Origin: an uncultured Maribellus sp.
GTDB lineage: Bacteria > Bacteroidota > Bacteroidia > Bacteroidales > Prolixibacteraceae
Assembly (NCBI GenBank): GCA_964476535.1
Contig: CAYZBC010000001.1
Span: forward strand, 4,788 to 68,787
Direction of reading: 5' to 3'
Length of the DNA: 64,000 nt
Shown: positions 2,738 to 47,085 of the stretch, one piece after another
Position numbering within the stretch: position 1 is the stretch's first letter
How the letters are laid out: the number at the start of each line of letters is the position of its first letter
Notes under the pieces: generated by a model
Told to the model about the DNA's origin: nothing
The model's input: only the letters and a program-made list of their open reading frames with translations
Databases searched by the model: none
Made by a program: the position numbers and the translations under genes

Positions 2738-3379
2738 TTATTGGCAGCATTTTTTTTTAAAATAATAACTCTTTTTTTCTGCCTTCACATCAAACGTATA
2801 GATCTCCGATTTTTTGTATTTATAAAAAATAGAAAATAATCCAATATCGCCGGCACAAAACAGACTGTGTGCACTCATCACAAAAATTAGAAAGTAAAAT
2901 AGGGGTGAATGCAGAAATAGAATTACTCCAAATAGAGTAATTATTTTGACGATAACCAGAGGTGTAAATGCAATAAATGCAAACTGTTTTCGATTGATTA
3001 CAAATTGATCGGCCTCGGCATAGAAAATAAATTTCTTTAAATAACCACCGAAATTTACTCTTTTTGCTCCGGTAAGTTTTAATGCAATCCCATGTAACAA
3101 TTCATGAATTACAATTAAAAGCGAAAAGCAAAAAATGAATGCTGCTGCAGAATAATAAAGTGGCTCCGAATAATTCTGAAAAGCAAGAACAACTGAACGT
3201 GTTAAAAAGAAAAGCCCAATCAGAATCATCAGAATCTGGTAAATCATATACATCCTCACGATTTTGCCATTTTCTGAAAGTTGGTTAATTACGAATTCTT
3301 TAATTTGCTGATGGTTGAGTTCAGCAATCAATTCAAATTCATCATCGTTTTGAAGCTGTTTTATCGTTGGATTTGTCAT
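2738..3379 (-). CDS. DUF3267-like membrane zinc metalloprotease
   Basis: HELLH (HExxH) motif within hydrophobic segments; C-terminal HxxxCAGD motif. Confidence 0.75.
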   Translation of the reverse strand: MTNPTIKQLQNDDEFELIAELNHQQIKEFVINQLSENGKIVRMYMIYQILMILIGLFFLTRSVVLAFQNYSEPLYYSAAAFIFCFSLLIVIHELLHGIALKLTGAKRVNFGGYLKKFIFYAEADQFVINRKQFAFIAFTPLVIVKIITLFGVILFLHSPLFYFLIFVMSAHSLFCAGDIGLFSIFYKYKKSEIYTFDVKAEKKSYYFKKKCCQ

Positions 3380-4824
3380 TTCTGATCGTAGCGAATAATT
3401 TGATACAAATCTTTTAAATTGAATAATTTGAGTAAAACTGCAAATATTACAGAAGCAGAAATCATAGCCAGGTAACCATAAAACCAGTTGTCAATACTTT
3501 TAGAGATGGTTCCAAAAACAACAACAACACCAACAAATAGAAGTAGCTGAAATACAAATTTAACCCCGGGTTTCAGTTTAAAAATTACCAAAACTAAAAC
3601 GACCTGAATTACTGCGGTAAAAATTTGTGTTATCAAACTTGCGTATGCCGAACCAAAAGCGTAGAAACGAGGAATCAGAATCAGGTTTAGTACAACATTT
3701 AAAACCATTCCAGAGAACGCCATAATATTCAAATATTTCAAACTGCCGTTCGCAGTTAGCAGCGTTCCAAAAATATAAGTGGTTGCAATTCCAATAAAAC
3801 CAAGCATTAAAATTCCAAGAATTTCGGAAGAGTGTGCGGTGTTCGACTTATATAAAACAGCCATTATTTCGTGATTATAATAAACACTTGAAACAGCAAT
3901 AATGATTGAAGGAATGATTAGTAATGTGTATGAAAGCTTAACCATTTGCCTAACGGATTCTTTCTGTTTAATCATTTTTGCGAAAATAGGTAAAAGCAGC
4001 CCTGCAAAAAGAACCCCAAACATTGAAACAGCGTCTAACAATCGAAATGCCTGCGCATAAATTCCAGCCTGTTCTTTTCCGAGAGGGTCGGGAAGTAGCC
4101 GCTCCAGCATTACAGAATCGATGCGGTTATAAAACGACATCAACAAAATAAGCAGTGCGTATGGATATGATTTCCGAAGAAATACGAGGAAAAATTTCAA
4201 ATTAAATTGAATTTTTATTTTTCCCGATTTGCCCAAAACAATTGCAAATGTGATTAATGAAGTTAAAACATACGCTACAGTTTGTGCATAAACAAACCAT
4301 TCAATGCTAAAGTTTCCTCCTAAAACATTTGTAAATAAAAGAATGCTACAAATTACGATCATAAAACTCCGGTCGAGAACCGAAATTATACTATCCGTGC
4401 GAAATAAATGAAGGGCACTAATATTCGATCGTAAATAAAGTGTAAAAGAAATAAGAAATTGGTTGAATACCAAAAACAAAAGTAGGTGAAGTTGGATTTT
4501 ATCGTACCCAATAATTGCCGCAATTCCAAAACTAAAAATGGCATAAACAATCGCAAGTAAAAACTTCAACCCAACGATATTTGAAACATGTTTTTTCAAC
4601 AAAAAGTTATGTTGTGCAATGTTTCTGTTATTGTAACTGGTAATTCCAATGTCGAGAAAAATATTTAAAATCATCGAGAAATTGAACAGTGCAAAATACA
4701 GCCCATAACTCTGATCTCCAACCATGTTTTGAACGGTTCGGTCGATTCCAAAAATCCAAAACGGTTTAATTAAAAGGTTTAGGAAAAGGAGTAATATGAG
4801 ATTGGTAATAAATTTGCGTTTCAA
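3376..4824 (-). CDS. Oligosaccharide flippase (Wzx/MOP superfamily)
   Basis: About 12-14 TM helices with N-terminal NLLIKPFWIFGIDRTVQN and YGLYF motifs. Start moved from 4899 to the in-frame TTG at 4824 (LKRKFITN). Confidence 0.85.
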   Translation of the reverse strand: MKRKFITNLILLLFLNLLIKPFWIFGIDRTVQNMVGDQSYGLYFALFNFSMILNIFLDIGITSYNNRNIAQHNFLLKKHVSNIVGLKFLLAIVYAIFSFGIAAIIGYDKIQLHLLLFLVFNQFLISFTLYLRSNISALHLFRTDSIISVLDRSFMIVICSILLFTNVLGGNFSIEWFVYAQTVAYVLTSLITFAIVLGKSGKIKIQFNLKFFLVFLRKSYPYALLILLMSFYNRIDSVMLERLLPDPLGKEQAGIYAQAFRLLDAVSMFGVLFAGLLLPIFAKMIKQKESVRQMVKLSYTLLIIPSIIIAVSSVYYNHEIMAVLYKSNTAHSSEILGILMLGFIGIATTYIFGTLLTANGSLKYLNIMAFSGMVLNVVLNLILIPRFYAFGSAYASLITQIFTAVIQVVLVLVIFKLKPGVKFVFQLLLFVGVVVVFGTISKSIDNWFYGYLAMISASVIFAVLLKLFNLKDLYQIIRYDQK

Positions 4825-4925: not shown

Positions 4926-6050
4926 ATGGTAATAGCCGTAAATACCCGCTTGTTGCTAAAGGGGAAATTAGAAGGAATTGGATGGTTTACACTGGAAACG
5001 TTAAAGCGGATGACAATCAATCATCCGGAACATCAGTTTATATTTATTTTCGACCGTCCCTTTGATCCCGATTATATATTTGCTGAAAATGTAACTCCGG
5101 TTGTAATCGGACCGCCAACCCGGCACCCTGTTTTGTGGTATATGTGGTTCCAGTTTCAAGTTCCACGAATTCTAAAAAGATACAATGCCGATTTGTTTCT
5201 TTCGCCTGATGGTTATTTGTCGTTGCGAACAAAAGTACCGCAATTAGGAGTTATTCACGATATTAATTTTGTGCACCGCCCAGACGATTTGCCATGGTTA
5301 AAAGCAAAATATTACAACTATTTCTTTCCAAAATTTGCCCATATCGCCAAACGAATTGCCACCGTTTCTTTCTATTCAAAAGAAGATATTACCCGTTCAT
5401 TCAAAGTAGATTACGACAAGATTGATGTGGTTTACGATGGGATTAATCAAATTTTTAAACCTATTTCAGAAAAAGGAAAAATTGCGGTTCGTAAAAAATA
5501 TACCGACGGCTCTGATTTTTTTCTATTTGTTGGAGCACTTCATCCTCGTAAAAATGTGAGCGGCTTGCTAAAAGCGTTCGATGCTTTTAAAAGTGTCACC
5601 GAAAACAGTATTAAATTGGTAATTGTAGGTGGCGAAATGCACAAAACAGGAGATATTTTTGAAACGTTTGAGAATATGCGTTATAAAAACAATGTGGTGT
5701 TTACCGGAAGAGTTACAACGCCTGAATTGCACGACATATTTGGCGCGGCATTGGCATTGACTTTTGTCCCGTTTTTCGAAGGTTTTGGAATTCCTATTGT
5801 TGAAGCAATGAGTGCCGGAGTTCCCGTAATTTGCTCCAATACTACATCTATTCCTGAAGTGGGTGGAAATGCCGTTTTGTATGCCGATCCCATTAAAATA
5901 GATCAAATAACGGAGGCGATGTTACAATTGGTTAACGATGATGAATTAAGAAAATCGTTAATTGAAAAGGGATTTAAACAAAAAGAGAAGTTTAGCTGGG
6001 ACGAAACGGCGCGTTTGTTATGGATGAGTATTGAACGGGCTTTGCAATAA
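4926..6050 (+). CDS. Glycosyltransferase family 4 (GT-B)
   Basis: PRKN motif, EGFGIPIVEAM signature, FSWDETA C-terminus. Confidence 0.92.
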   Translation: MVIAVNTRLLLKGKLEGIGWFTLETLKRMTINHPEHQFIFIFDRPFDPDYIFAENVTPVVIGPPTRHPVLWYMWFQFQVPRILKRYNADLFLSPDGYLSLRTKVPQLGVIHDINFVHRPDDLPWLKAKYYNYFFPKFAHIAKRIATVSFYSKEDITRSFKVDYDKIDVVYDGINQIFKPISEKGKIAVRKKYTDGSDFFLFVGALHPRKNVSGLLKAFDAFKSVTENSIKLVIVGGEMHKTGDIFETFENMRYKNNVVFTGRVTTPELHDIFGAALALTFVPFFEGFGIPIVEAMSAGVPVICSNTTSIPEVGGNAVLYADPIKIDQITEAMLQLVNDDELRKSLIEKGFKQKEKFSWDETARLLWMSIERALQ

Positions 6051-11732: not shown

Positions 11733-12590
11733 GTGGAAAAAAAAAAGAAAAATAAAGTTTTTGATAAATTAAAAGACCAGTATCGTTTAATTATTTATAA
11801 CGATACAACTTTTCAATCGGTTTGGAGTATAAAACTTTCTCGATTAAAAGTATTTACCGTTACAAGCTTGTTGTCTGCAATAATTGTAGTATTGGTAATT
11901 TTACTTATTGCTACAACCGGATTGCGAGAATATATTCCTGGTTATCCAAAAGCGGAGTATAGACAAATATTGGTTCACAATGCTTTAAAAGTAGATTCTT
12001 TAGAAAACGAGCTAATAAAAAGAGATGAGTTTTTCAAGGGAATAAAAGCGATAATTTCTGGCGAAATCCCGGAAGATAATTTGGATATTAACACGAATGT
12101 TGAAACCAATGATATTGAATTTATGGAATTCAACCACGATTCGGTTTTTCAAGATAAATTGCTGGCAGAACAGTTAAGTTTATCCATTCAAAATAACGAC
12201 AGTAAAAATACCGGAATTAGTCAGATGCATTTTTTCGTTCCCGTAAATGGAGTGGTATCAAATCATTTTAATTCCAGCAAAGACCATTTTGGAATTGATT
12301 TAGTAAGTGTGCCGAATGCTAGAATTTCAGCGATTTTACAAGGAACGGTAATCTTTTCGGGATGGACAGTTGAAACCGGATATGTAATTTATATTCAGCA
12401 TGAAACGGATTTAATCTCAGTTTATAAACACAATGCCGAATTGTTGAAAAACACTGGAGATAAAGTGGAAGCAGGCGAAGCCATTGCAATTATTGGAAAT
12501 ACCGGAGAACTTACCACCGGGCCGCATTTGCATTTCGAACTTTGGTACAAAGGGAATGCATTAAACCCAGAGCAATACATCGATTTTTAA
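11733..12590 (+). CDS. M23 family metallopeptidase
   Basis: HFGID (HxxxD), YKHN, TTGPHLHFE (HxH) motifs, N-terminal TM. Sits upstream of dxr as is usual in Bacteroidota. Confidence 0.9.
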   Translation: MEKKKKNKVFDKLKDQYRLIIYNDTTFQSVWSIKLSRLKVFTVTSLLSAIIVVLVILLIATTGLREYIPGYPKAEYRQILVHNALKVDSLENELIKRDEFFKGIKAIISGEIPEDNLDINTNVETNDIEFMEFNHDSVFQDKLLAEQLSLSIQNNDSKNTGISQMHFFVPVNGVVSNHFNSSKDHFGIDLVSVPNARISAILQGTVIFSGWTVETGYVIYIQHETDLISVYKHNAELLKNTGDKVEAGEAIAIIGNTGELTTGPHLHFELWYKGNALNPEQYIDF

Positions 12591-12596
12591 AATTTT

Positions 12597-12772
12597 ATGA
12601 AACGACCGTGAGACAAAATCACACACAAAGTATGATTATATTTTAGGGAGTTCCATCTGTTGCAAAAAAAATTATAAACAGTTAAAACGAGCATGGCAAA
12701 TATTGGCAAACAGGAGGATGGTTATTCAGCAAGTTACATGTGTTGCTGTTAAAAATAAACAATTATAAACCC
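12597..12772 (+). repeat. Tandem pair (D1 12597-12681, D2 12682-12772) of an 85-115 nt start-codon-associated repeat
   Basis: D2 matches copy B (18442-18352, minus) at 34 of the first 44 positions and again at the 3' end (ACAATTATAAAC). Ends immediately before the dxr ATG. Confidence 0.8.
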
Positions 12773-13927
12773 ATGAAAAAGAGAATAGCTATTCTTGGCT
12801 CTACCGGTTCTATCGGAACACAATCATTGGAAGTTATCGAGCAAAACTCAGATAAATTTGAAATTGAAGTATTAACGGCTAATAATAATGTTGATTTATT
12901 AATTCAGCAGGCAAAAAAATTTCAGCCAAATGCAGTTGTTATTGCAAACGAAGATAAATATAAAGTTGTTTCCGAGGCATTGGCAAATGAGCCGATAAAG
13001 GTTTATGCCGGAAACGATGCCCTTAATCAGGTGGTACAAATGGATACAGTTGATTTAGTGCTCACTGCAATGGTTGGTTATTCTGGATTGATTCCTACTT
13101 ATCACGCAGTAAAAGCAGGGAAGAACATAGCACTGGCAAACAAAGAAACCCTGGTAGTTGCAGGTGAAATAATTACAAAATTAGCCCACGAAAAGAAAGT
13201 TGAAATTATTCCGGTAGATTCAGAGCATTCGGCAATTTTTCAATGTTTGGTTGGCGAATTTATGAACCCCATTGAAAAAATTTATTTGACTTGTTCGGGT
13301 GGCCCATTTCGGGGAATGTCTGCAACTGAACTTCAGAACGTTACGGTTGATAACGCTTTGGCGCATCCCAACTGGGAGATGGGAGATAAAATTACAATAG
13401 ACTCAGCCACATTAATGAACAAGGGGTTTGAAATGATTGAGGCGCATTGGCTTTTTGGATTGCCCTCATCAAAAATTGATGTAATTATACACCCGCAATC
13501 TATTATTCATTCAATCGTTCAGTTCGAGGATGGTTCAATGAAAGCACAGATGGGATTGCCTGATATGAAATTACCCATTCAATACGCCATTGGATTTCCA
13601 TCTCGAATAAAGAACAATTTCCCGAGGTTCAACTTTTTAGACTATCCGACTCTTAATTTTGAGCCGCCAAATACAAAAATTTTTCGTAACCTTGCACTCT
13701 CTTTTGAAGCACTTGATTTAGGGGGCAACATGCCATGTGTCTTAAATGCTGCAAATGAGGTGGTTGTAGAAGCATTTTTGAATAAAAAAATAGGGTTTTT
13801 GCAGATGTCGGAAACGATAGAAACTGTCATGCAAAAGGTAGCATTAATTAAAAACCCCGAATTAGATGATTTAATTCAAACCAATGCTGAAGCCAGAAGA
13901 ATAACAGAACGGTTAATTGAAAATTAG
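12773..13927 (+). CDS. dxr: 1-deoxy-D-xylulose 5-phosphate reductoisomerase
   Basis: ILGSTGSIG, LANKETLV, PVDSEHSAIFQ, SGGPF, HPNW.MG.KITIDSAT, NAANEV. Start placed at ATG 12773. Confidence 0.98.
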   Translation: MKKRIAILGSTGSIGTQSLEVIEQNSDKFEIEVLTANNNVDLLIQQAKKFQPNAVVIANEDKYKVVSEALANEPIKVYAGNDALNQVVQMDTVDLVLTAMVGYSGLIPTYHAVKAGKNIALANKETLVVAGEIITKLAHEKKVEIIPVDSEHSAIFQCLVGEFMNPIEKIYLTCSGGPFRGMSATELQNVTVDNALAHPNWEMGDKITIDSATLMNKGFEMIEAHWLFGLPSSKIDVIIHPQSIIHSIVQFEDGSMKAQMGLPDMKLPIQYAIGFPSRIKNNFPRFNFLDYPTLNFEPPNTKIFRNLALSFEALDLGGNMPCVLNAANEVVVEAFLNKKIGFLQMSETIETVMQKVALIKNPELDDLIQTNAEARRITERLIEN

Positions 13928-17233: not shown

Positions 17234-18187
17234 TTAAAAGGCAGCCTTTATAATTTCTCCCACGTTATCCGAAATTCCGTACGTATAAATATGTAACGAC
17301 GGTGCGTTGTTGGCGACCAAATCTTTCGACTGAATAATGGCCCACTCGGTACCAACTCTCCGGGCTTCCTCGTTATTTTTGCATTTTGCCAGTTCATTTG
17401 CCAGTTCAAAAGGTAAATCGATACTAAATATTTTGGGTAGAACTGTGAGTTGGTTTTTTAAATTAATGGGTTTTATTCCTGGAATAATTGGGACAGTAAT
17501 TCCAATCTCGCGGCATTTTGCCACAAAATCGTAATATATTTTATTATCAAAAAACATTTGGGTTACAATGTAATCTGCACCCGCATCAACTTTTTGTTTT
17601 AAATTAGTTAAATCGAGCTCCTTATTTGGCGATTCAAAGTGTTTTTCAGGATAACCGGCCACGCCAATGCAGAAATCGAGCGGAGTACTATTTTTTAAGT
17701 CTGTCTCTAAATATTTACCTTTTTGCAGATCTTTAATTTGAGTTACCAATTCATTGGCGTAGGCATGTCCATTTGGATCGGGTTGAAAAACATGCTGGTT
17801 TTTTAAACCGTCGCCCCGCAATGCCAATATATTTTCAATACCTAAGAAATTCAAATCGATTAAAACATGTTCGGTTTCGCTTTTTGAAAAACCGCCACAT
17901 AGAATATGAGGAATAACAGGAATGCCATATTTGTGTTGAATGGCTGCTGCAATTGCAACAGCTCCCGGACGTTTGCGGACAGTTCGTTTAACAATACTTC
18001 CATCATGTAATTCCTTAAATTCCAGTTCGTCGCGATGGGTAGTAATGTTAATATATTTTGGGTCAAAATCAATCAAACTTTCAATTGTTTGGTACATTCT
18101 GCTCGTATTGTTCCCTTTTAAAGGGGGTAGAAGTTCAAACGAAAAAACCGTTTTTGATGACTTGTTTATGATATCGATTACCTTCAT
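17234..18187 (-). CDS. metF: 5,10-methylenetetrahydrofolate reductase
   Basis: FSFELLPP, PHILCGG, LALRGD, AGYPEKH, KVDAGADYIVTQMFFD motifs. Confidence 0.96.
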   Translation of the reverse strand: MKVIDIINKSSKTVFSFELLPPLKGNNTSRMYQTIESLIDFDPKYINITTHRDELEFKELHDGSIVKRTVRKRPGAVAIAAAIQHKYGIPVIPHILCGGFSKSETEHVLIDLNFLGIENILALRGDGLKNQHVFQPDPNGHAYANELVTQIKDLQKGKYLETDLKNSTPLDFCIGVAGYPEKHFESPNKELDLTNLKQKVDAGADYIVTQMFFDNKIYYDFVAKCREIGITVPIIPGIKPINLKNQLTVLPKIFSIDLPFELANELAKCKNNEEARRVGTEWAIIQSKDLVANNAPSLHIYTYGISDNVGEIIKAAF

Positions 18188-18192
18188 TTCTA

Positions 18193-18351
18193 TTATTTAA
18201 ATATGTTTTCAATTTTGTGCCCCGCTTTGTTTAGCTCTTTGTCAATTTCTTTTTCAACTGAATTGTTAAAATTAAAAACCATGTCGAGTACGAGCATCAC
18301 CAGCATTCCTAAAATGAAATAATATATGTTGCCTTTTCTGAAAATTTTCAT
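18193..18351 (-). CDS. Small (52 aa) predicted single-pass membrane protein, absent from the ORF track
   Basis: MKIFRKGNIYYFILGMLVMLVLDMVFNFNNSVEKEIDKELNKAGHKIENIFK. Basic N-terminus, TM segment, charged tail; stop is 5 nt before the metF ATG. Confidence 0.6.
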   Translation of the reverse strand: MKIFRKGNIYYFILGMLVMLVLDMVFNFNNSVEKEIDKELNKAGHKIENIFK

Positions 18352-18554
18352 CTGTTTATAATTGTGTGTTTTTTATCGGAAACAGATGTATCTCGCTTAT
18401 AACCATCCGCCTGTGTGTAAAATTTTTACATGCTCGTTTCATAAGATTATAATTGTTTGTCTTATAGTATCATATGTAACTCACTATAATCATTCTTCTC
18501 CCGATTAAAATGCGGGACAAGTCGTTTACAAGAATTTTTACATGCTTGTTTCAT
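18352..18554 (-). repeat. Tandem pair (A 18554-18443, B 18442-18352) of the start-codon-associated repeat
   Basis: ATGAAAC(A/G)AGCATGTAAAAATT is 21/22 identical between copies; shared GAG(T/A)TACAT and ACAATTATAA; homologous to 12597-12772. Confidence 0.85.
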
Positions 18555-18788
18555 TTGTTAAAATTTAATATTTGTAAAAGTATAAAAAAGTGTGTTTTAT
18601 TAGGTTTGCCACTTTATTCAGACTTAAAATTTAATATTAGTTTTTCGGGGTTGAAAGCTGAAATTACCCTAAAAATCAATAGTTCAATGTTAGGATTTCC
18701 AGGTAAATTAAATCTCTGTGTTTATTTTTTATTGCGAAGACATTCCTCCTTTTTTATTCTGACTTCCATCTTTCAGCTTCGAACTTAT

Positions 18789-21700
18789 TTACTTATAATT
18801 CAGATTGGTGGGCAGAAATTTCTCCACAAATGCAACCGTTTTTCCTTTTCGTTTTGCATAATCTTCAACCTGATCCTTGCCAATTTTTTCTAAACTGAAG
18901 TACCTCGATTCGGGATGTACAAAAAATTCTCCTGAAACCGATGCATTTGGATACATGGCAAAATGTTCGGTCAATGTAATTCCAACGTCTTCTGCTTTTA
19001 ATAATTTGAAGAGATTTTCTTTTTCTGAATGTTCGGGGCACGCTGGATAACCTAGTGCCGGGCGAATTCCCTGGTATTTAATTTTGAGTGTTTCGTCCAA
19101 CGAAAGATCTTCATTTGGTGCGTATCCCCAGTAATCTTTTCGAACCTGCAGGTGAAGTAATTCCGCGAAAGCTTCACTCAAACGGTCGGCAAGTGCTTCC
19201 AGCATAATTGCTTTGTAATCGTTGTTTTCTGCGCGATACTGGTCTTTCCATTTTTCTATGCCAATTCCTCCGGTTGTAGCAAAACCGCCACAGTAATCTA
19301 TTTTACCCCATTCAATTGGTGCAACAAAATCGGAAAGGCAGAAGTTTGAAATTCCCTCCTTTTTCTTTTCCTGCTGACGAATGTGATAAAACCGACCAAT
19401 CTCATTTTGTCGTGTTTCATTTTCGTACATCACCACATCATCGCCATCGGCATTAGCAGGCCAGATTCCAAATACTGCATTGGCCTGCAGCATTTTCTTT
19501 TCGATTATTTCATCCAAAAATTCGTTGGCTTCGACGTATAGTTTTTTTGCAGCGTCGCCTTGTTTCTCGTCGTTAAAAATTTGTGGGAAATGCCCTTTTA
19601 AACCCCAGGTTATAAAAAAGAATGTCCAGTCGATGTATTTACGTAATTCTTCCAGTGGAAAATCAATAAGCTGTTTTACTCCAATAAAATTTGGTTTGTA
19701 AATGGGCGTATTATTCCAGTCTATTTTAAATTTATTTCTTTGGGCTTGCTCTAAAGTCAAATATTTTTTAGGTTTTCGATTCCCTTGAAATTTTCGAATC
19801 TCAGCATAATCATTTTTAACCGAATCAAGGTATTTTTGATTTTTTGCGATGAGGTTTGAAACCACATTTACTGCCAACGACGCATCTTTTACATGAATTA
19901 CGGGGGAAGAATATTCTTGTTCAATTTTAACAGCCGTATGAATTTTTGATGTTGTTGCCCCACCAATTAAAATGGGAATATTCAGTCCGCGACGCTCCAT
20001 TTCTTTCGCAACGTCAACCATAATTTCCAGCGATGGAGTAATCAAACCACTCAATCCAACTACATCCACGTTTTCTTTGATGGCAGTATCAATTATTTTT
20101 TCGGTGGGAACCATAACTCCTAAATCGATAATTTCGTAATTGTTACAAGCTAAAACAACGCCCACAATATTTTTTCCAATGTCGTGAACATCGCCTTTTA
20201 CCGTGGCCATCAATACTTTTTTCGCAGACGATACTGTATTGTATTTTGCTTTGTCGGCATCAATGAATGGAAGTAAAAAAGCCACCGCCTTTTTCATTAC
20301 ACGCGCCGATTTTATTACCTGTGGAAGGAACATTTTACCGGCTCCAAACAATCCACCAACTACATTCATCCCATCCATTAACGGACCTTCGATAATATCT
20401 AATGCCAGTTTATATTTTTTTACAGCTTCTGCCATATCTTCATCAATAAACTCGGGAAAACCTTTAACCAAAGCGTGTTGAATACGTTTTTCAAGGGGAA
20501 GTTCACGCCATTCGTTTTTACGCTCCACTTTTTTCCCATCCGATTTTACATTTTCAGCAAACTCGAGCATTTTCTCCGTTGCGTCAATTTTTCGGTTAAG
20601 AATTAAATCTTCTGTTTTTTCCAAAAGGTCTTTCGGGATTTCATCATAAATCTGAAGCATTCCAGGATTTACAATTCCCATGTCGAGTCCGGCTTTTATA
20701 GCATGAAAAAGAAATACAGAATGCATGGCCTCACGAACTGTATTGTTGCCCCGAAAAGAAAAAGAAATGTTGCTTATTCCACCGCTGGTTTTAGCATGAG
20801 GAAGATTTTCTTTTATCCATCGCACCGAATCAATAAAATCGATACCATAATTGCTATGTTCTTCCATTCCGGTACCGAGGATTAAAACGTTAGGGTCGAA
20901 AATAATATCTTGCGGAGGGAAGTTGACCTGTTCAGTAAGAATTTTATATGCCCGGCTACAAATCTCTTTGCGGCGCTCCAAATTATCGGCTTGCCCTACT
21001 TCGTCAAAAGCCATTACAACTACGGCTGCGCCAAAACGTTTTATCACTTTTGCCTGATGAATAAAACTCTCTTCACCCTCTTTTAAACTGATGGAATTTA
21101 CAATCGCTTTTCCCTGTAAACATTTTAATCCGGCTTCAATTACTTTCCACTTCGAAGAGTCGATCATTACCGGAAGTTTGGCAATGTCGGGTTCAGCCAT
21201 TAACATGTTCAGGAATTGTACCATCTCTTTTTCGGCATCCAACATTGCATCGTCCAGATTTACATCGATAATCTGTGCACCATCTTCAACCTGTGCTCGT
21301 GCGATTGAAAGTGCTTCTTCGTATTTTTCTTCGCGAATTAAGCGTGCAAATTTCCTTGACCCGGAAACATTGCACCGTTCACCAATATTTACGAAGTTGG
21401 TTTCTTCAGTTAAAGTAACAGGCTCCAGACCACTAAATTTTGTATTTGAATCAGCCTTATTTATTTGATGCGGTTTTGCTTTCTCTGCAATTTTTACAAA
21501 TTCACGAATGTGTGCCGGAGTAGTTCCGCAGCAACCACCAATTATATTTACAAAATTGTTGTCGAGATAATCTTGCAGATAACCGGTCATTATTTCCGGT
21601 GTTTCGTCGTATTCGCCAAACTGATTTGGCAAACCTGCATTTGGATGAGCGCTGATATGGAATGGTGCTTTTCGTGAAAGTTCTTTTACGTAGGGACGTA

Positions 21701-25280: not shown

Positions 25281-25292
25281 GATTGTGTTCAA

Positions 25293-25393
25293 ATTATAAT
25301 TCCGTTTCCGGCCGGGTATTGGCACCTTTCCCTTTTGTCCCGGTTGGTTGCCAGAGCTTCTCAGAGCCCGCTCTCTTCACTCTTCTATATAAT
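25293..25393 (-). ncRNA. SAM-I (S-box) riboswitch
   Basis: P1 ATTAT/ATAAT; kink-turn region GAGAG-CGGG-CTCTGAGAAG; GGCAACC...AGGTGCCAA core; pseudoknot CGGG/CCCG (compensatory relative to canonical CUGG/CCAG); short P4 CCG-GAAA-CGG. Lies upstream of methionine genes. Confidence 0.92.
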
Positions 25394-25518
25394 CAAACAC
25401 TCTTTAGAGAAAGAATATTTGATACGCTTCAAATTTAATCGAAAATGCTTAATTTCAAATATTTTTAGGTCAGTACTTTTAAAACGTTAAGATTCATTTA
25501 TAATTTCAATAATTTTGC

Positions 25519-25609: not shown

Positions 25610-25684
<75 letters not shown>

Positions 25685-28158: not shown

Positions 28159-29937
28159 TTAATTGCTCTTGGTAAATTTTTGAACTTTAGTACCCAAATC
28201 ATTTTTAATTGTAATTAGATAAAGCGCATTGGGCAAATCAGATACATCAACCACATGATATTGTTCTGACACGGTAAACTGTTTGCAAACCTTACCCCGA
28301 ACATCTAAAATTTCTATTTGAGATGTATTGGTTATTCCGTTTATATTTATCGTTGATTTTGCTGGATTTGGATAGATTTTCAAATTATTAAATTCTGAGT
28401 CAATATGAATATCATTTGCTGAAGTTGGAATACATGACGAACTAATACACGAAATTCCCATTGGAACAGGATCGCCTACAGAATAGGTATTGCGTACAAA
28501 TATGTTGTAGTTTCCTTTGTCTAGGTTTTCTATTTCAAAAGTACCTACATCATCTGAAACAGAATATGGGAAAGTCTCACCCCCATCTATACTAAATTCG
28601 AGGATTGAGACATCTTCAAAATCAGGAAAAACGAAGGTTAATTTACAATCATCTATGCCGGGAAAAACAGCCATTATTCCTTCATCGGGCGTACCTAAGT
28701 CATCAGTCAACGCAACATTTCCTCTTAGCATTTCGGCAGCTTTACCCGCACAACGCAAGTACCAATCGCTGGGAAGTTCATGACCATCAGCATCCAAATT
28801 CAGCCAATTTTCCTGTGCCGGTGCTTGACTACCATTTTCAGCTGTTTTAAAAAATGCCGTACTTTCATCTACTTCATCGAGCATAGCAAAGTAAACTGAT
28901 TCTACTTTATTTTTAACTGCGCCATAAGCTTGTAACCAGAAAAAATTACCTCCATCTCTGGGAATTTTATTCATTGGTGAATTTCCATTCCGAAGGTTAT
29001 ACCATCCAAAACCAGGGAAAACTACTGGTACATATAAAATACCTCGCTGCTCGCACCATGCCTTACCCGGTATTAGTTGGTTTTTCTCGTAACTGTTGTA
29101 TCCGTTTTGATCACCAAACCGTCCTACACTCCAAGGACTAATAACTTCAACCTGTGCCAATGCATTTGACCACCTTTCACCTTTTTTCCAAAAATTATCG
29201 TTCACACCTAATTTTATTGAAGCGTTATATTTCGAATCTTCATTATTATGAAAGAATTCAATTAGTTCTTCTAATTCTTCAACTGGTGCATCATCTCGAA
29301 CGGTGTATCCCCACAAAGCAACAATCGGACGGTTATCGTGATTAAGATAATTTTCTGACTGTGTAAGTTCGAGGTTATCAACCAAGTGTTTCCAGTCCTT
29401 TTTTATACTATTTACTCTTCCGGCAATTCCATCGTACATAATTGCAAACACACGGCCGTATTCTTCACAACCTTCTTTTACAAAAACAGTAGTACTATCT
29501 CTAAAAGCCATTACAACACGATCGTTATATTCACTAATAAAGCGCTGAACCCATACTCCATCTGTATTATAGTCGCGTACCCATTTCATATGTCGCTTAA
29601 CGGTTTGTCTATTTCCTGAAGAAAATACTGGCACAGCCGCTCCGTTTGAATATGTGTAAGCTGTTTCATATCTCTCATCGGCACAATACTCGCGCATATC
29701 CGGTAACATATCAATACTTAACGAGTTGATGCTTACATTATCCATATTTCCCCAGTGCCAGTAGTGGGGTCTGGGACTATCATCATCGGGGTGACCAAAC
29801 CACCCCTGGTAGCCAAACATAGCCTTACCAGCGTATGAACTATTATCGACAGGTGGTACTTCCAGTTTTTGACTGTAAGTGATATTTGAAATCAATACTG
29901 TTAAAACTAATACAACTAAACTTTTAATCATTTTCAC
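28159..29937 (-). CDS. GH99/GH71-like glycoside hydrolase with T9SS C-terminal domain
   Basis: MFGYQGWF, HMKWVRDY..DGVWVQRF, PGFGWYNL, AMLDEVDESTA, PSDWYL; C-terminal IYPNPA...DVSDL..LY.I.I...KFTK. Confidence 0.82.
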   Translation of the reverse strand: MKMIKSLVVLVLTVLISNITYSQKLEVPPVDNSSYAGKAMFGYQGWFGHPDDDSPRPHYWHWGNMDNVSINSLSIDMLPDMREYCADERYETAYTYSNGAAVPVFSSGNRQTVKRHMKWVRDYNTDGVWVQRFISEYNDRVVMAFRDSTTVFVKEGCEEYGRVFAIMYDGIAGRVNSIKKDWKHLVDNLELTQSENYLNHDNRPIVALWGYTVRDDAPVEELEELIEFFHNNEDSKYNASIKLGVNDNFWKKGERWSNALAQVEVISPWSVGRFGDQNGYNSYEKNQLIPGKAWCEQRGILYVPVVFPGFGWYNLRNGNSPMNKIPRDGGNFFWLQAYGAVKNKVESVYFAMLDEVDESTAFFKTAENGSQAPAQENWLNLDADGHELPSDWYLRCAGKAAEMLRGNVALTDDLGTPDEGIMAVFPGIDDCKLTFVFPDFEDVSILEFSIDGGETFPYSVSDDVGTFEIENLDKGNYNIFVRNTYSVGDPVPMGISCISSSCIPTSANDIHIDSEFNNLKIYPNPAKSTININGITNTSQIEILDVRGKVCKQFTVSEQYHVVDVSDLPNALYLITIKNDLGTKVQKFTKSN

Positions 29938-30995: not shown

Positions 30996-32274
30996 TACTA
31001 AATGGGATTTCCTTACGTAACATTTTAGCAGCCGTTCCAGTCAACCACAAATAATGGTCAGATGGCATACCATCGTTATCAACAAAATGTGCTTTATCGT
31101 TATTAGGAGGATTGTCAGAAACTTTCATTATGGCAGTTCCTTCATCAATTTCATCGAACATTGCTACATAAATCATTTCTGCACCGGCACTAATATGAGC
31201 CGATATCTGATCCCAATAAAATGCGCCTCCCAAACGTGGAATTGCCCCATAAGCTGTATGACGTGCTAAACCTTTATTACTAAGAGAAAGGTTCCTCCAG
31301 CTAAAACCAGGATATGCAATTGGTGCATAATCAATACCGTACTTTTTTGTCCATTTAAGATCTTCAATAACATGATCTCGAATATGATCGAGCGGCTTAT
31401 GTACTAATGGAGTAAAACGTTGCACCATCCAAGGTAAAACAATGTCAACCGATTTAATTATATCGTGTAAATAAGGATCGGGCAAACAATCTTTATTTAA
31501 TTCGCGAAAGTATGTTGGAACACCAAGCATAACTGAACACCCACCGTAAACCGGATCATTTTTAAGAAAATCAATCAAGCGATTAATCCCTATTTTACGC
31601 GTATCATACGGTCTGTCGGGAAAACCTACTCCCCAAATAGCAACCAATGGTTTATTGTTATGAAAAAGATAAGTTTGGTCTTCTCCCCGACTCGTAACCT
31701 TGAGTTCATCAACCAACATTTTCCAGTCCTCAATTACTGATGAGCAGTCTTCTCCTTCCGCCTTTAATCCCGACAAATCATACATCACAGCAATTGCCCT
31801 TTTGTTTTCTTTTGCTGCCTCTAAAGCATTTCTCAGAATTATATCCTGAGATTTATTTGAATTATGGTAACCACGTGTAACTCCAAAAAAACGTTGCATA
31901 AATACTCCATCAACTCCATAATCTTTCATCCATTTAAAATGAAGCTCGGTTGTACTTTTATCTAACGAACTGAAAACTTCAGCCGCATTCCCGCTGGCAT
32001 CTTTAAAACTGGTTTTATATATTTTTTTATACTCTGTAACATCGGGCCAAAAGTCAATTGTATTATGTTCGGCATCAAATTTCCCTGCTCTTCCGAAGTG
32101 CCCCCATCCATTTCCAGCACCATCTCCATCGGCGCGGAACCAACCCTGATAACCTGCCATTACCAAACCTTTATAGCTCTTAAATAAAGTCTTTTCGCCA
32201 TGTTTACTCTGACCACTAACAGTCAATGTTGAAATAGTTATAAGTATTATTATAAGCTTGCAAATTTTATTCAT
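30976..32274 (-). CDS. GH99/GH71-like glycoside hydrolase with signal peptide only
   Basis: VMAGYQGWF, HFKWMKDYGVDGVFMQRF, AVMYDLSG, YPGFSWRNL, AMFDEIDEGTA, PSDHYL. Start moved to ATG 32274. Confidence 0.85.
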   Translation of the reverse strand: MNKICKLIIILITISTLTVSGQSKHGEKTLFKSYKGLVMAGYQGWFRADGDGAGNGWGHFGRAGKFDAEHNTIDFWPDVTEYKKIYKTSFKDASGNAAEVFSSLDKSTTELHFKWMKDYGVDGVFMQRFFGVTRGYHNSNKSQDIILRNALEAAKENKRAIAVMYDLSGLKAEGEDCSSVIEDWKMLVDELKVTSRGEDQTYLFHNNKPLVAIWGVGFPDRPYDTRKIGINRLIDFLKNDPVYGGCSVMLGVPTYFRELNKDCLPDPYLHDIIKSVDIVLPWMVQRFTPLVHKPLDHIRDHVIEDLKWTKKYGIDYAPIAYPGFSWRNLSLSNKGLARHTAYGAIPRLGGAFYWDQISAHISAGAEMIYVAMFDEIDEGTAIMKVSDNPPNNDKAHFVDNDGMPSDHYLWLTGTAAKMLRKEIPFSIEIPKR

Positions 32275-43699: not shown

Positions 43700-45082
43700 A
43701 TGTCTAATACATCTGAATATCTTATTCTTGTTGTAGTCGTTTTTACAATATATTTAATCATAGGCATTTTCCCATTTTCGAAATCAAATCGTGAGAATTT
43801 TTTAATCTCGGGTCGAAAATTAGGAGGGGTTTCTAATGGTTTTTCAATAGCTGCAAGTAAAATTGGAGGTGGGTTATTGGTAACCTATTCTACCTTGTTT
43901 TTTGCTTTTGGATGGAGTGCGATATTTTATTTTGTAGGCATTATTATTGGCTATTTGCTTTTTTACCTCTTTGCTTTTAAACTAGTAGATGAGTCAAAAG
44001 AAAGAAACTACTATACGGTTGCCGATTATTTTTCAAATAAATTTGGAAATAAAGTCGGTATTGTCATTGGTGTTTTAACTACCTGTTCGGTACTTGGATG
44101 GATTTTTACCAATTTGGCTGCAGGCGGTATTATCCTAAGTAATATAACAGATATTTCTCCTTTTATTACAACTTCCGCACTTGCTTTATTAATTGGTTTA
44201 TACTTGTATGTTGGTGGATTTGCATCTGTAATAAAAACGGATGTAATTCAATACCTTGCCCTACTTACAATAACTTCTATTTTTGTTTTGGTTTTATATA
44301 CTTCCGATTTCCAAACAAATGTCATTCAGGTTTCATCTGCCCCAATTGGCATGATTATAGGTTTTATTTTTTTAGGAATATTGTTCCCAATGGGATCGGG
44401 TGAATTGTGGCAAAGAATTTATTCTTCAAAAAGTACAAGGGAGTTTAAAAGATCATTAGTTATTGCTTCGGTATCTTATGTTGTTTTGGGTATTTTTTTG
44501 TCAATTATCTGTTTTCAGATTCTTGCAGTTGTACCATCATCTCTACTCTCTGTTAAAAATGAATTAAAACTTACTTTGGGTGTTGAACATTTGGTGAAAA
44601 ATATACATCCCTTATTGCCTGTGGTATGGTTAATAGCCTACTTGTCTGCTATCATATCAACAGCAGATACATTTGTCTTTACTGCAGCATCTTCATTGGT
44701 TCAAGACTTGCTTCAAAAATCGGAAAGAATAAAATCCGAGGAGGTGGTTTCAAAAATTAAAATATCAATTATAGCCCTTTTAATTTTAGGGGTAATTATA
44801 GCTTATTTCTTCCCGGATGTTGTAAGCCTGACATTTCTTTTTGTTGGTATCTCATTGGTGATTTCAAGTTTAGCTTATTTCTCTAGAGTGAAAAAATTAG
44901 AAAAGAAAAAACGCTCTTTCTACATCTCTGGATTAATTGGTTTTTTCTCCGTACTTATCCATTTTGCAATATCAGGATTTGAAGCTAATATTATAACTGC
45001 CCTAATTGGATTTGGCACAGCCACGATTTGTCTTATATTTAGTTTGGTATCTACTAAGTTAAAAATACACAGCCCGGAATAA
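43700..45082 (+). CDS. Sodium:solute symporter (SSS) family protein
   Basis: F.ISGRKLG, SIAASKIGGG, GGFASVIKTDVIQ, WQRIYSSK, SAIISTADT motifs; about 13 TM helices. Confidence 0.85.
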   Translation: MSNTSEYLILVVVVFTIYLIIGIFPFSKSNRENFLISGRKLGGVSNGFSIAASKIGGGLLVTYSTLFFAFGWSAIFYFVGIIIGYLLFYLFAFKLVDESKERNYYTVADYFSNKFGNKVGIVIGVLTTCSVLGWIFTNLAAGGIILSNITDISPFITTSALALLIGLYLYVGGFASVIKTDVIQYLALLTITSIFVLVLYTSDFQTNVIQVSSAPIGMIIGFIFLGILFPMGSGELWQRIYSSKSTREFKRSLVIASVSYVVLGIFLSIICFQILAVVPSSLLSVKNELKLTLGVEHLVKNIHPLLPVVWLIAYLSAIISTADTFVFTAASSLVQDLLQKSERIKSEEVVSKIKISIIALLILGVIIAYFFPDVVSLTFLFVGISLVISSLAYFSRVKKLEKKKRSFYISGLIGFFSVLIHFAISGFEANIITALIGFGTATICLIFSLVSTKLKIHSPE

Positions 45083-46236: not shown

Positions 46237-46350
46237 AAACAAGAAAGCATGTAACCAATGTAAAATTAGATTGGCAGTATATTGTATACACGATTAAATT
46301 TTTATGTGAGTTCCATACTTTTCAGTTAAACATTTTAAAAACTAGAAAGC
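46237..46350 (+). repeat. Diverged single copy (E) of the start-codon-associated repeat
   Basis: AAGCATGTAA near the 5' end; GATTAAATTTTTATGTGAGTTCCAT vs D1 GATTATATTTTAGGGAGTTCCAT; CATACTTTT pairs with GAAAGCATG, which includes the ATG at 46351. Confidence 0.55.
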
Positions 46351-47085
46351 ATGAAAACAAGAACAATTTTAATCACAGTAGCAATTGTATTGACTGGTTC
46401 GTTAACATTAGTCTCAGCTCAAAATACGATTGAAAAAAAATCTCCCGTAGTAGAAACTCAACAAGCTCGCTTTGGTAACCTTGCGAACAATCAGGTAAAT
46501 CTTTTATACCTAAATACTTTTGATAATAGCAAAACCAAATTGGTAGTAGTAGTTGAAGAAAAATACGGTGATCTGGTTTACTCAAAACGTTTTTCAAAAA
46601 CAAAGAATTTGAATTTAAACCTTGATATTTCAGATTTTCCTGAAGGCGACTACACTTTTAAACTTTATAACAAAACCCAATTAGTTTGTTCCAAAGTTAT
46701 AACAAAACAAAATTGTATTTCAACATTAAACGACAACGTAAGACATCGGATTACAGAACTATCTCCATTTATAAAAACCCAGCAAGCACACATTGGAGAT
46801 AATATAAACAATCAGGTAAATCTTCAATACATAGACACAACTGATAAAGGTCGTCGTAACATGGCAGTTCATATTATTAAAGAGTCTGGTCAGTTACAAT
46901 ATTCAAAAAGTTTTTTCACAAACGGAGATCTGAATGTCAGTTTTGATATATCGATATTACCGGTAGGCAATTACACTTTCCAATTTTATAATAAAAACGA
47001 ATTGGTTTGTACAAAAGCTATTACAAAACAACTGGTGAAGCGTACCGAGAAACTTACGGCAAGCCTTTTTACTAAAGAAAACTAG
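46351..47085 (+). CDS. Secreted protein made of two tandem T9SS-CTD/DUF3244-like Ig modules
   Basis: Signal peptide; internal repeat QVNL.Y.....YSK.F....LN...DIS..P.G.YTF..YNK..LVC.K.ITKQ occurs twice. Confidence 0.7.
   Translation: MKTRTILITVAIVLTGSLTLVSAQNTIEKKSPVVETQQARFGNLANNQVNLLYLNTFDNSKTKLVVVVEEKYGDLVYSKRFSKTKNLNLNLDISDFPEGDYTFKLYNKTQLVCSKVITKQNCISTLNDNVRHRITELSPFIKTQQAHIGDNINNQVNLQYIDTTDKGRRNMAVHIIKESGQLQYSKSFFTNGDLNVSFDISILPVGNYTFQFYNKNELVCTKAITKQLVKRTEKLTASLFTKEN

Follow-up and report, generated by a model that had tools for sequence, protein, structure and literature searches.

A repeat of about 95 bases that lies directly before Met-Lys start codons is a previously undescribed mobile element, and its family is widespread in marine Bacteroidota. 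We consider it probable that the repeat is non-coding and non-autonomous, that it integrates at ATGAA(A) starts and regenerates the start codon together with an A-rich leader, and that it carries an internal strand complementary to the unit junction, CAN'ATGAAAC. Five copies occupy three loci in the window, the 64-kb stretch of DNA analysed here: D1 and D2, A and B, and E. All five were located again where the original prediction had placed them and on the same strands, and so were the sequence features by which it had defined them: D2 and B are both 91 nt long and agree at 34 of the first 44 positions, ATGAAA opens A, B and D1, TTAAAA opens D2, and D2, A, B and E end directly before an ATGAAA.

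At the first locus, D1 (12597-12681, + strand) begins with ATGAAAC at the original position of the dxr start codon, downstream of an M23 peptidase gene (11733-12590, +). D2 (12682-12772, +), which belongs to a different subfamily, lies directly 5' of the regenerated ATGAAA (12773-12778, +) that now opens dxr (12773-13927). The terminal pseudo-start of D1 has decayed to TTA and reads TTG in a sister population. D1 contains the guide strand GAGTTCCATCTG (12648-12659, +), and the minimum-energy fold is predicted to include its P1 helix, ATG.AAC/GTT.CAT. The guide strand of D2, AAGTTACATGTG (12731-12742, +), has the counterpart GAGTTACATGTG in the sister population, where pairing with CACATG is perfect; compared with that population, the window copy has lost one pair.

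On the minus strand, unit A (18443-18554, 112 nt) begins at the original start-codon position of orf52 and is followed by unit B (18352-18442), the best-preserved window copy. The regenerated ATGAAA (18346-18351) opens orf52, a 52-aa membrane-peptide ORF (18193-18351) with metF downstream (17234-18187, -). A has the guide strand GAGTTACATATG (18471-18482, -) and an extra hairpin, CTTGTCCCG..CGGGAG. In B, CATCTGTTT within the guide strand GAGATACATCTG (18383-18394, -) pairs at all nine positions with AAACAGATG, and this 9-bp anti-ATG helix is present in the minimum-energy fold. The third locus holds a single old and diverged copy, E (about 46237-46350, +), with the core GAGTTCCAT (46308-46316, +) and an anti-ATG strand, CATACTTTT, that pairs with GAAAGCATG. 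It precedes a gene with an ATGAAA start (46351-47085, +) whose secreted product is a DUF3244 protein carrying a C-terminal T9SS sorting domain.

The anti-ATG stems proposed for these copies are as quoted: besides the 9/9 of B, 7/9 pairs form in D2 and in A, and 7/9 plus one wobble in E, with stem position 4 being C-G in B, G-C in D2 and A-T in A. When a covariance model built solely from copies in other genomes was run on the window, B scored 74 bits (E=3e-12), D1 62 and D2 36, with A (17.7 bits) and E (17.3 bits) marginal. An inverted-repeat search aligned the dxr and metF loci over 60 nt at 77%, and the likeness among the window units is far beyond chance. Sequence searches and the covariance model found no sixth copy in the window; candidates at 5036-5097, 44187-44337 and 59182-59193, all within coding sequence, were rejected as chance matches.

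Family and target sites

A pattern scan of one genome per species returned at least 117 matching stretches, from which 121 distinct units were extracted. Among the matches listed, almost all come from Marinilabiliales (Labilibaculum, Prolixibacteraceae, Geofilum, Draconibacterium, Sunxiuqinia and others) and a few from Paludibacter, Cytophagales, Chitinophagaceae and Ignavibacteriales. One full copy, the one true match in IMG/VR, lies in a tail-gene cluster on a phage contig; the plasmid and phage collections of GenBank contained no match to the element. Unit length is usually 92-107 nt and reaches 138 nt with extra hairpins. The 5' half comprises ATGAAAC, GA, a helix strand, a variable hairpin, CACACAG and ATGATTAT; the 3' half comprises the partner helix strand, GA, GTTCCAT-N-TG, an A-rich stretch with AAATTATAA, and CA-N', and is directly abutted by the ATGAA(A) of the host gene. 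The long boxes are invariant across genera. As had been predicted, reading frame is not conserved (distances from ATGATTAT to the terminal ATG, modulo 3, split 44/33/38), and we therefore rejected a coding or leader-peptide role; ORFs from the 5' ATG end variably, as MKRP*, MKRA* or longer. No internal Bacteroidetes-type promoter (TTTG / TAnnTTTG) was visible by eye in the consensus.

Units are sense-oriented and placed precisely at Met-Lys start codons. Among the 100 units not followed by another unit, 77 have an ORF of at least 60 aa running from the terminal ATG, compared with 27.5% of all ATGAAA in the same loci. Right junctions read ATGAAA in about 94% of cases, with ATGAAC, ATGAAT and ATGAAG as variants; because merely ~17-36% of genes begin with ATGAAA, the target is specific. 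The 5' flanks of first and single units carry the native Bacteroidetes initiation-region signature, with A at a frequency of 0.68 at -12 and 0.63 at -13, and a host gene with a unit retains its start codon and N-terminus and gains an A-rich leader. Initiation in Bacteroidetes is tuned by upstream adenines and mRNA structure, and extra AUGs near starts are avoided (PMC6847099). Tandem arrays comprise up to four abutting units with no ORF between them, 21 of the 121 distinct units directly precede another unit, and two different subfamilies may stack at one start codon. Separate units are not clustered beyond chance.

The genes behind the units have little in common: 73 downstream proteins span 122 Pfam families, each found in at most three proteins, no orthology of downstream proteins between genomes was found, and different genomes do not share insertion sites. 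The element is thus not a gene-specific regulator. On these grounds, and on that of the empty sites described below, we rejected a riboswitch or gene-specific leader.

For two of the three loci in the window, relatives have empty sites with a single start codon. In relatives whose Dxr is 85-92% identical (L122, L124-L127), the M23 stop codon is followed by 3-6 nt and then the dxr start, which is ATGAAA in L124, ATGAAG in L122 and ATGAGG in L126 and L127. The corresponding gap in the window is 182 nt, and the insertion site reads ATGAAA, 176 nt of D1 and D2, and a second ATGAAA; the Dxr N-terminus, MKKRIAILG, is identical in relatives that have no insertion. The orf52/metF locus of relative L128 likewise has no unit. 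At both dxr and orf52 the sole difference between filled and empty sites is the block between two ATGAAA. The empty-site evidence comprises these two loci together with relics, among them one before a DUF4837 gene in L123 that is absent from the window. Counterparts of E at the orthologous gene in L129 and L130 are decayed and have lost the core, which E itself retains.

Sequence relationships between copies point to dispersal. A D2-like unit, 91% identical to D2, occurs at another locus (L132) of the same metagenome sample, and in 13 of the 14 genomes compared, copies at different loci share an identity of 0.74-0.92 (0.67 for one pair), as against 0.68 between genomes. D1 and D2, and likewise A and B, are each closer to units in other genomes than to their array partner: D1 is 81% identical to the L011 unit, and A shares 78% identity over 118 nt, and its extra hairpin, with the L117 unit of another genome. 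The pattern of turnover and the decay of older copies are more in keeping with a selfish element than with a conserved regulator. Of the two hypotheses in the original prediction, that of a mini mobile element inserting at ATGAAA starts is well supported by the empty sites, the dispersed copies, the unrelated genes and the tandem arrays.

Covarying structure and a candidate guide

Three helices covary across the family: P1b, a long-range helix that closes the 5' domain beside tandem G.A/A.G; P2, a variable hairpin; and P4, in which CATNTG pairs with CAN'ATG and covers the start codon. The N/N' pair of P4 is A-U in 43 units, C-G in 28, G-C in 26, U-G in 3 and other in 7 (110 units). The covariation score of P4 was 0.148 compared with 0.049 when shuffled (0/500), and 0.204 compared with 0.080 in a model-based alignment, figures that reflect essentially one position in P4, as against three or four in P1b, and counts inflated by subfamily descent. 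The P1b pairs in the model-based alignment were GC52/CG28, AU37/CG34 and UA25/AU23. Permutation z-scores were -11.5 for P1b, -11.9 for P4 and -5.0 for P2, with controls near 0. A covarying anti-ATG hairpin whose strand can alternatively pair with the 5' ATG, first proposed from the window copies, therefore holds on more than 100 copies, and the wider family shows both the covariation and the bias toward start codons.

This structure was obtained with anchored segments and a hand-given structure; RNAalifold on a plain MAFFT alignment returned none. Single-sequence fold z-scores were weak (-1.8 to +0.95). A CACACA-loop helix suggested by single-sequence folds was unsupported by partner permutation (z about +1), and a hairpin around ATGATTAT was weakly supported (z=-2.3). 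Fold energy was alike on both strands (-17.0 vs -17.6 kcal/mol, p=0.13), and with no strand asymmetry we rejected sense-specific folding as a discriminator between RNA and DNA.

Apart from one mismatch, the conserved strand GTTCCATNTG is the complement of CAN'ATGAAAC, which would be the sequence spanning a unit junction or circle junction. We propose that GTTCCATNTG may serve as a built-in guide: when a single strand folds, the guide would pair with the ATGAAA at one end of the element or the other and with ATGAAA targets, and would thereby present the joining sites to a putative trans-acting enzyme. Insertion would re-create an adjacent ATGAAA, and since each insertion would leave ATGAAA beside the element, re-insertion would yield tandem arrays. 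Insertions presumably survive only at start codons because elsewhere in a gene they would be disruptive. In the mRNA, P4 would necessarily occlude the start codon and compete with the 5' AUGAAAC for the guide, and the element is therefore predicted to lower or condition translation, an effect that we regard as a side effect or later exaptation. A bolder version, in which a ~10-nt guide pairs with ATGAAA(C) of a single-stranded nucleic acid and directs insertion of the ~95-nt element at the Met-Lys start of any gene via a putative enzyme, with the same helix acting as a start-codon switch in mRNA, we advance tentatively, as possible rather than probable. The conserved unpaired boxes CACACAG, ATGATTAT and AAATTATAA are not accounted for by the guide and could have a partner at the RNA level.

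Non-autonomous IS200/IS605 derivatives (PATE) and REP/BIME elements are mobilised by Y1 HUH transposases (TnpA, RAYT/TnpA-REP). Their cleavage and target sites are read by reprogrammable internal guide bases, as set out in PMC3201880, PMC5934647 and PMC2817692, and the pairing of internal guide bases with cleavage sites is the logic that our proposal would follow by analogy. Like these elements, the units have no terminal inverted repeats or clear target duplication, their ends being direct copies of ATGAA(A); they insert in a specific orientation beside a short specific sequence; and they have high copy number and tandem or composite arrangements. Hairpin-containing ends may be a further likeness: where the IS200/IS605-type elements have subterminal hairpins at both ends, each unit has one covarying hairpin domain (P1b/P2) and one strand complementary to both junctions, with no second hairpin. 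Unlike in IS200/IS605, a single guide would serve both ends, its complementarity amounts to 6-10 Watson-Crick pairs rather than 3-4 partly non-canonical ones, and the target is a start codon plus Lys codon at which the translation initiation region is rebuilt. Replication-strand bias also appears weak by comparison: the sense strand of units is the G-rich strand at 63 of 97 loci, about what gene orientation alone gives, and window units lie on both strands.

No TnpA/RAYT gene was found beside any copy in the 8-kb flanks of 117 loci, where ORF clustering recovered ordinary gene families only and no linked transposase, recombinase or reverse transcriptase recurred. No circular or excised form of the element was seen. 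UBA6680 loci share contig ends, and a metagenome scan on them found nothing.

Competing explanations

Host selection for a translational cis-regulatory RNA, the other hypothesis of the original prediction, is unlikely in our judgement. The guide would toggle between 5' AUGAAAC (ON) and 3' CAN'AUG (OFF), and the trigger would be temperature, a trans factor or ribosomes moving along the mini-ORF (MKRP*/MKRA*). Units are always on the sense strand and inside transcripts, as between M23 and dxr, genes only 3-6 nt apart in relatives; the start-codon helix covaries and tolerates U.G, the tandem G.A/A.G motif is stable on the sense strand only, and the conserved unpaired boxes could bind a factor. 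Such control would suit Bacteroidetes, which initiate translation without Shine-Dalgarno pairing; structure and upstream adenines tune their initiation (PMC6847099). RNA thermometers and translational riboswitch platforms share with the units a helix that sequesters the initiation codon and an alternative upstream partner, but the units differ from them in having no conserved gene association and a transposon-like turnover. Against this reading, the downstream genes are functionally unrelated and non-orthologous between genomes, the same genes in close relatives do without the element, and old copies have lost core and pairing. Regulation would hardly account for near-identical copies or for arrays with as many as four units, and the strand-symmetric folding energy and weak single-sequence z-scores also speak against it.

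Searches for a described family were negative. No copy in the window, nor any at ten loci with consensus-like copies, reached the gathering score of any Rfam 15 family (4227 families), and where the L036 array and positions 12400-12900 were scanned by E-value, only chance-level matches to eukaryotic or viral families appeared. A known ribozyme was rejected, with no Rfam match and a hammerhead-like GAAAC/AUGAUUA reading that misfits the helix order. Elsewhere in the window, the Rfam search identified one tRNA and one SAM riboswitch. Literature searches turned up no relevant account of a repeat associated with start codons in Bacteroidota.

We doubt strongly that the family is a SINE-like retroelement, in which a transcribed unit would pair through its guide with ATGAAA DNA and be copied in by a reverse transcriptase encoded elsewhere. 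The strict sense orientation in mRNAs, the RNA-like architecture with covarying helices and the A-rich 3' part are as such an element would have them, as are a few 5'-truncated copies (L049, model positions 42-96; L094, 52-97; L073, 13-97). Most copies, however, are full-length with a precise 5' ATGAAAC, terminal poly-A is absent, both strands fold equally well, and no reverse transcriptase was seen in the 8-kb flanks.

Movement of an attC-like folded site by an integron-type or Xer-type tyrosine recombinase is very unlikely. The 5' domain, ATGAAAC-GA-helix-variable structure-helix-GA-GTTCCAT, does resemble an attC strand (R box AAC...GTT, spacer, L box), and the layout of a folded site with two paired boxes, an unpaired spacer, a variable cap, outer AAC...GTT and arrays is similar to that described for attC sites, which are recognised by structure (PMC4889954); tandem arrays also resemble ORF-less cassettes. 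Unlike attC sites and CALIN, the units have no cassette ORFs between them, are strongly conserved in sequence, and are scattered as single copies at gene starts. RYYYAAC/GTTRRRY is matched at AAC/GTT only, the ATGAAC, ATGAAT and ATGAAG right junctions put the crossover 5' of the sixth base rather than at AA|C, and no integrase was seen in the 8-kb flanks. It is scarcely credible that the units are immobile and arose from a native 5' leader by local tandem duplication and gene conversion: slippage could produce units joined at ATGAAA, but the same ~95-nt sequence stands before more than 70 unrelated genes, spread over dozens of genera, and this cross-genome family already contradicts such an origin, as do array partners whose closest relatives are in other genomes.

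Among short repeats, a classical MITE was rejected, since the 5' end ATGAAACGAG and 3' end ATTATAAACAN are not terminal inverted repeats. Correia elements of Neisseria, ERIC and Rickettsia palindromic elements either end in inverted repeats or are palindromic in their body, and none is known to target start codons. Like them, the unit is a short, non-autonomous repeat that lies within transcripts and may fold as RNA. In the case of Rickettsia palindromic elements, insertion within genes is tolerated because the reading frame is kept; tolerance here comes instead from the regenerated ATGAAA and the A-rich leader.

A probable mobile element at start codons

Mobile elements are usually tolerated between genes, or in tRNA and REP "safe harbours". 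For the element described here the safe harbour is the start codon itself, which is unusual, and it stays harmless by rebuilding that codon and an A-rich leader whose adenines occupy positions reported as favourable to initiation in Bacteroidetes (PMC6847099). The element also accounts for recurrent annotation errors, namely N-terminal extensions and spurious ORFs over units, and in genomes of Marinilabiliales the covariance model can serve for masking or annotating the family. If the element does choose its targets through a long complementary strand of its own, this may be of interest as a principle for programmable insertion. The family constitutes a natural experiment in which Shine-Dalgarno-independent initiation faces upstream AUGs and a start-codon helix. 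If the guide-directed reading is true, a portable module for translational control and initiation would have spread through a phylum that initiates translation without Shine-Dalgarno sequences.

Units in the window and their neighbourhood

All five repeat copies lie where the original prediction had placed them. Units D1 (12597-12681, +) and D2 (12682-12772, +) together fill the 182 nt separating an M23-peptidase gene from dxr. Units A (18554-18443, -) and B (18442-18352, -) have metH on one side and, on the other, a 52-codon membrane-peptide ORF (orf52) preceding metF, and unit E (about 46237-46350, +) stands before the gene of a secreted DUF3244 protein that carries a T9SS sorting domain. 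On recount, D2 and B, both of 91 nt, are identical at 34 of their first 44 positions. The stems proposed for these copies were correct, that of unit B being a perfect 9-bp helix (CATCTGTTT/AAACAGATG). An HMM made from the five copies found no more in the window, and three look-alike stretches there fall inside coding sequence and were rejected as chance matches. Single-sequence folds of the window copies are weak (z -1.8 to +0.95); the structural evidence for them is comparative, coming from aligned sequences.

In the comparison with Rfam 15 that had been proposed, the units matched no family, whether the cut-off was the gathering score or an E of 10. The window's only Rfam matches are a SAM riboswitch (61.6 bits; 25291-25395, -) and a tRNA gene (25610-25683, +), with metH/metF and units A and B a few kb off. 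A 127-aa ORF called as a gene in public assemblies (window 18510-18893, +; L001 6297-6680) lies on the opposite strand to unit A and metH, overlapping the former and the 3' end of the latter, and is probably a spurious call due to the repeat. Three paralogous coding segments (29363-29599, 31694-31948 and 55204-55446; 61-84% identity over 44-61 nt) are not related to the family.

A structured family beyond the window

The repeat is real and had been under-stated. A pattern scan of one genome per species for three conserved boxes (ATGRTTAT .. RAGWTMCAT .. AATTATAA) returned at least 117 matching stretches. Among the matches listed, all but about six chance ones are from Bacteroidota; the majority are Marinilabiliales (Labilibaculum, Marinifilum, Geofilum, Alkalitalea, Saccharicrinis, Draconibacterium, Sunxiuqinia, Mangrovibacterium, Mariniphaga, Maribellus and many MAGs), and the minority comprises a few Paludibacter and one MAG each of Cytophagales, Chitinophagaceae and Ignavibacteriales. 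The window itself belongs to a Draconibacterium-like population of Prolixibacteraceae from metagenomes of saline-lake type. From the matched loci we extracted 121 distinct full units, typified by that of L032, cATGAAACGAGCCATGAGAATTACTTCTCACACAGGAGAATGATTATTGGCGAGTTCCATCTGACAATTAAAAAACAAATTATAAACAG followed by ATGAAA. The boxes ATGAAACG, CACACA(G), ATGATTAT, GAGTTCCAT and AAATTATAA are almost invariant between genera, and the intervening stretches are variable. Ten loci with consensus-like copies gave no match in Rfam, and literature searches found no account of the family. The repeats form a large family, structured and not described before.

The covarying anti-ATG helix of the original prediction (P4, CATNTG with CAN'ATG) is supported over more than 100 copies. 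Among 129, the N-N' pair is A-T in 44, C-G in 32, G-C in 23 and T.G in about 4, with about ten mismatches; in an alignment of 110 units the counts for the central pair are AU 43, CG 28, GC 26, UG 3 and other 7, and covariation scores 0.148, compared with 0.049 for shuffles (0/500) and at most 0.066 for slid controls. A model-based alignment of 116 units raised the score to 0.204 against 0.080 (0/500) and revealed P1b, a long-range helix closing the 5' domain (GC52/CG28, AU37/CG34, UA25/AU23) and adjoining both a tandem G.A/A.G and an AAC/GTT helix. When partner segments were exchanged among units, the permutation z was -11.9 for P4, -11.5 for P1b, -5.0 for the variable local hairpin P2 and -2.3 for a small hairpin around ATGATTAT, with control segment pairs near 0. 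A helix with CACACA as its loop had no support in this test.

The alternative pairing proposed earlier also stands: the conserved GTTCCAT can pair with the unit's own 5' ATGAAAC as well. Its two partners are contiguous over the unit junction, where CAN'ATGAAAC and GTTCCATNTG are complementary at 10 of 11 positions; the remaining position is A.C when read on the sense strand, G.T on its complement. The strands do not differ in folding energy (-17.0 vs -17.6 kcal/mol, p=0.13), so the data favour neither strand, nor DNA over RNA, as the folding molecule. As had been noted, the units share no conserved reading frame. In many (e.g. L033, L011) the 5' ATGAAAC opens a mini-ORF, often of four codons (MKRP-stop 20 times, MKRA-stop 10 times), which is short because the conserved CCATGA or GCATGA provides a stop codon.

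After the CACACA box, unit A (18495-18520, -) and units of L031 and L117, from another MAG, carry an extra hairpin, CTTGTCCCG...CGGGAG; unit B belongs to the same subfamily and lacks it. Different insertions occupy this spot in L049 and L101, indicating that added stem-loops are tolerated there.

Insertion, arrays and decay

Looking for empty sites, as the original prediction had suggested, we found dxr orthologues at 92, 88 and 85% Dxr identity with the same gene order and no unit. The empty site in L124 reads tttttaa-aatcat-ATGAAAAAGAGAATT and the filled site in the window tttttaa-aatttt-ATGAAA[CGACC ... ACCC]ATGAAAAAGAGAATA, leaving the Dxr N-terminus unchanged. Likewise, orf52 in L128 starts directly behind its native leader with no detectable unit, where the window has A and B between two ATGAAA. 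Upstream of first or single units, the flank shows the initiation signature native to Bacteroidetes (adenine 0.68 at -12 and 0.63 at -13; positions as defined in PMC6847099), implying that the unit's 5' ATGAAAC occupies the gene's former start-codon position. An ORF of at least 60 aa runs from the terminal ATG in 77 of the 100 units with no unit behind them, against 27.5% for ATGAAA generally, and ATGAAA opens just 17-36% of this lineage's genes. The downstream genes are not orthologous between genomes and are scattered across 122 Pfam families, none of them in more than three proteins. Within a genome, copies at different loci have an identity of 0.74-0.92 for 13 of the 14 genomes compared (0.67 for one pair), against 0.68 between genomes. 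These results show that the repeat is an insertion rather than a conserved leader, and the best explanation for it is a mobile element, non-autonomous and specific for start codons, the second of the two hypotheses originally put forward.

Arrays contain up to four units (L036, L115). The nearest relative of D1 is a Prolixibacteraceae-type unit (L011, 81%) and D2 belongs to another subfamily, so two separate insertions, of different elements, took place at the dxr start codon. In the same metagenome sample, a D2-like unit that precedes an unrelated gene is 91% identical to window D2 and differs from the D2 of a sister population at about 4 of 91 positions (hand count). A third subfamily is represented by A, its long form, and B, its short form, which are 78% and 87% identical to L117.

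Old copies decay. E has counterparts at the orthologous gene of L129 and L130, in which the core GAGTTCCAT now reads GAGTTTACAC and TAGCTCCAA; a 30-bit relic precedes a DUF4837 gene in L123 and is absent there in the window; and window D2 has lost one P4 pair (CCCATG) that the sister population keeps (CACATG). The decayed E copy in L129 (1501-1605) is in frame and stop-free, and the orthologue of the 244-aa protein is consequently annotated 34 residues too long (278 aa).

Repeats are known targets of IS110-family elements. In a Labilibaculum MAG (L072, about 3040-4400), an IS110-family IS lies within an array's second unit, directly behind ...CAGGGGGATG, its transposase (PF01548 and PF02371 matches) split into 314-aa and 101-aa ORFs; units may serve as IS110 landing pads. 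Separately, a head-to-head two-unit composite with 27-nt inverted arms (ATGATTATAAATGCGAGTTCCATCTGG) and a 35-nt loop, serving divergent genes, ends three Bacteroidales UBA6680 contigs (L055 4969-5125, L106 5024-5181, L119 7502-7638). All three stop 18 nt past ...ATGAAAGATAGGTT, suggesting that what follows is a multi-copy sequence; a scan of metagenomes gave no match to it.

Proposed mechanism and probable effects on translation

The left junction copy is almost always ATGAAAC and the right is ATGAAA in about 94% of units, with ATGAAC, ATGAAT or ATGAAG in a few. Unless these rare right ends arose by later mutation, they place the crossover at the fifth base or 5' of it. Most simply described, a block [ATGAAAC ... 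CAN'] is set directly 5' to an ATGAA(A) start codon; on the other strand, an element ending in GTTTCAT inserts 3' of TTTCAT. Insertion is site- and orientation-specific, at Met-Lys start codons, and regenerates the start codon and an A-rich leader (A at -6, -11, -12 and -13); copies turn over and the fold is conserved. In a folded single strand, the internal GTTCCAT strand could act as a guide, pairing with ATGAAA at both element ends and at targets and presenting these sites to a putative trans-acting enzyme. After each insertion there is an ATGAAA at either side of the unit, so that further insertion beside it could build the arrays, and insertions elsewhere in genes would be purged by selection. 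No linked enzyme was found among ORFs flanking the repeat loci, replication-strand bias is weak (63 of 97 loci), and the guide mechanism does not account for the invariant unpaired boxes.

The nearest precedent for such a guide is IS200/IS605 and REP/RAYT, in which, as described in PMC3201880, PMC5934647 and PMC2817692, TnpA binds hairpins and cleavage and target sites pair with reprogrammable internal guide bases. Among elements of the MITE or REP kind, to which it is assigned, this one stands out for an unusual target, the start codon, and an unusual built-in complementary strand. Its 5' domain resembles integron attC in shape; an attC-like reading fails on cassette content, sequence conservation and junction position. 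A full unit (92.6 bits) at a gene start codon in a phage (L139 8770-8867; IMG/VR UViG_3300039008_000327), the gene lying directly upstream of a 677-aa tape-measure-like gene in a tail cluster, is a possible vehicle of horizontal spread.

The other original hypothesis was a switchable regulator of translation. To judge from gene order, some units are certainly transcribed, since they lie inside M23-dxr, an operon in relatives. The start codon in such RNA is predicted to sit within a 6-9 bp helix whose 5' strand can alternatively pair with the upstream AUGAAAC. Bacteroidetes initiation needs open, A-rich leaders, and nearby AUGs are avoided (PMC6847099), so this helix should affect expression, an effect that may be regulated. 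However, nothing in the distribution of units demands regulation, and the decay of old copies argues against host maintenance of the helix. A host-selected switch is improbable as the primary explanation, and it is likely that translation is affected as a by-product.
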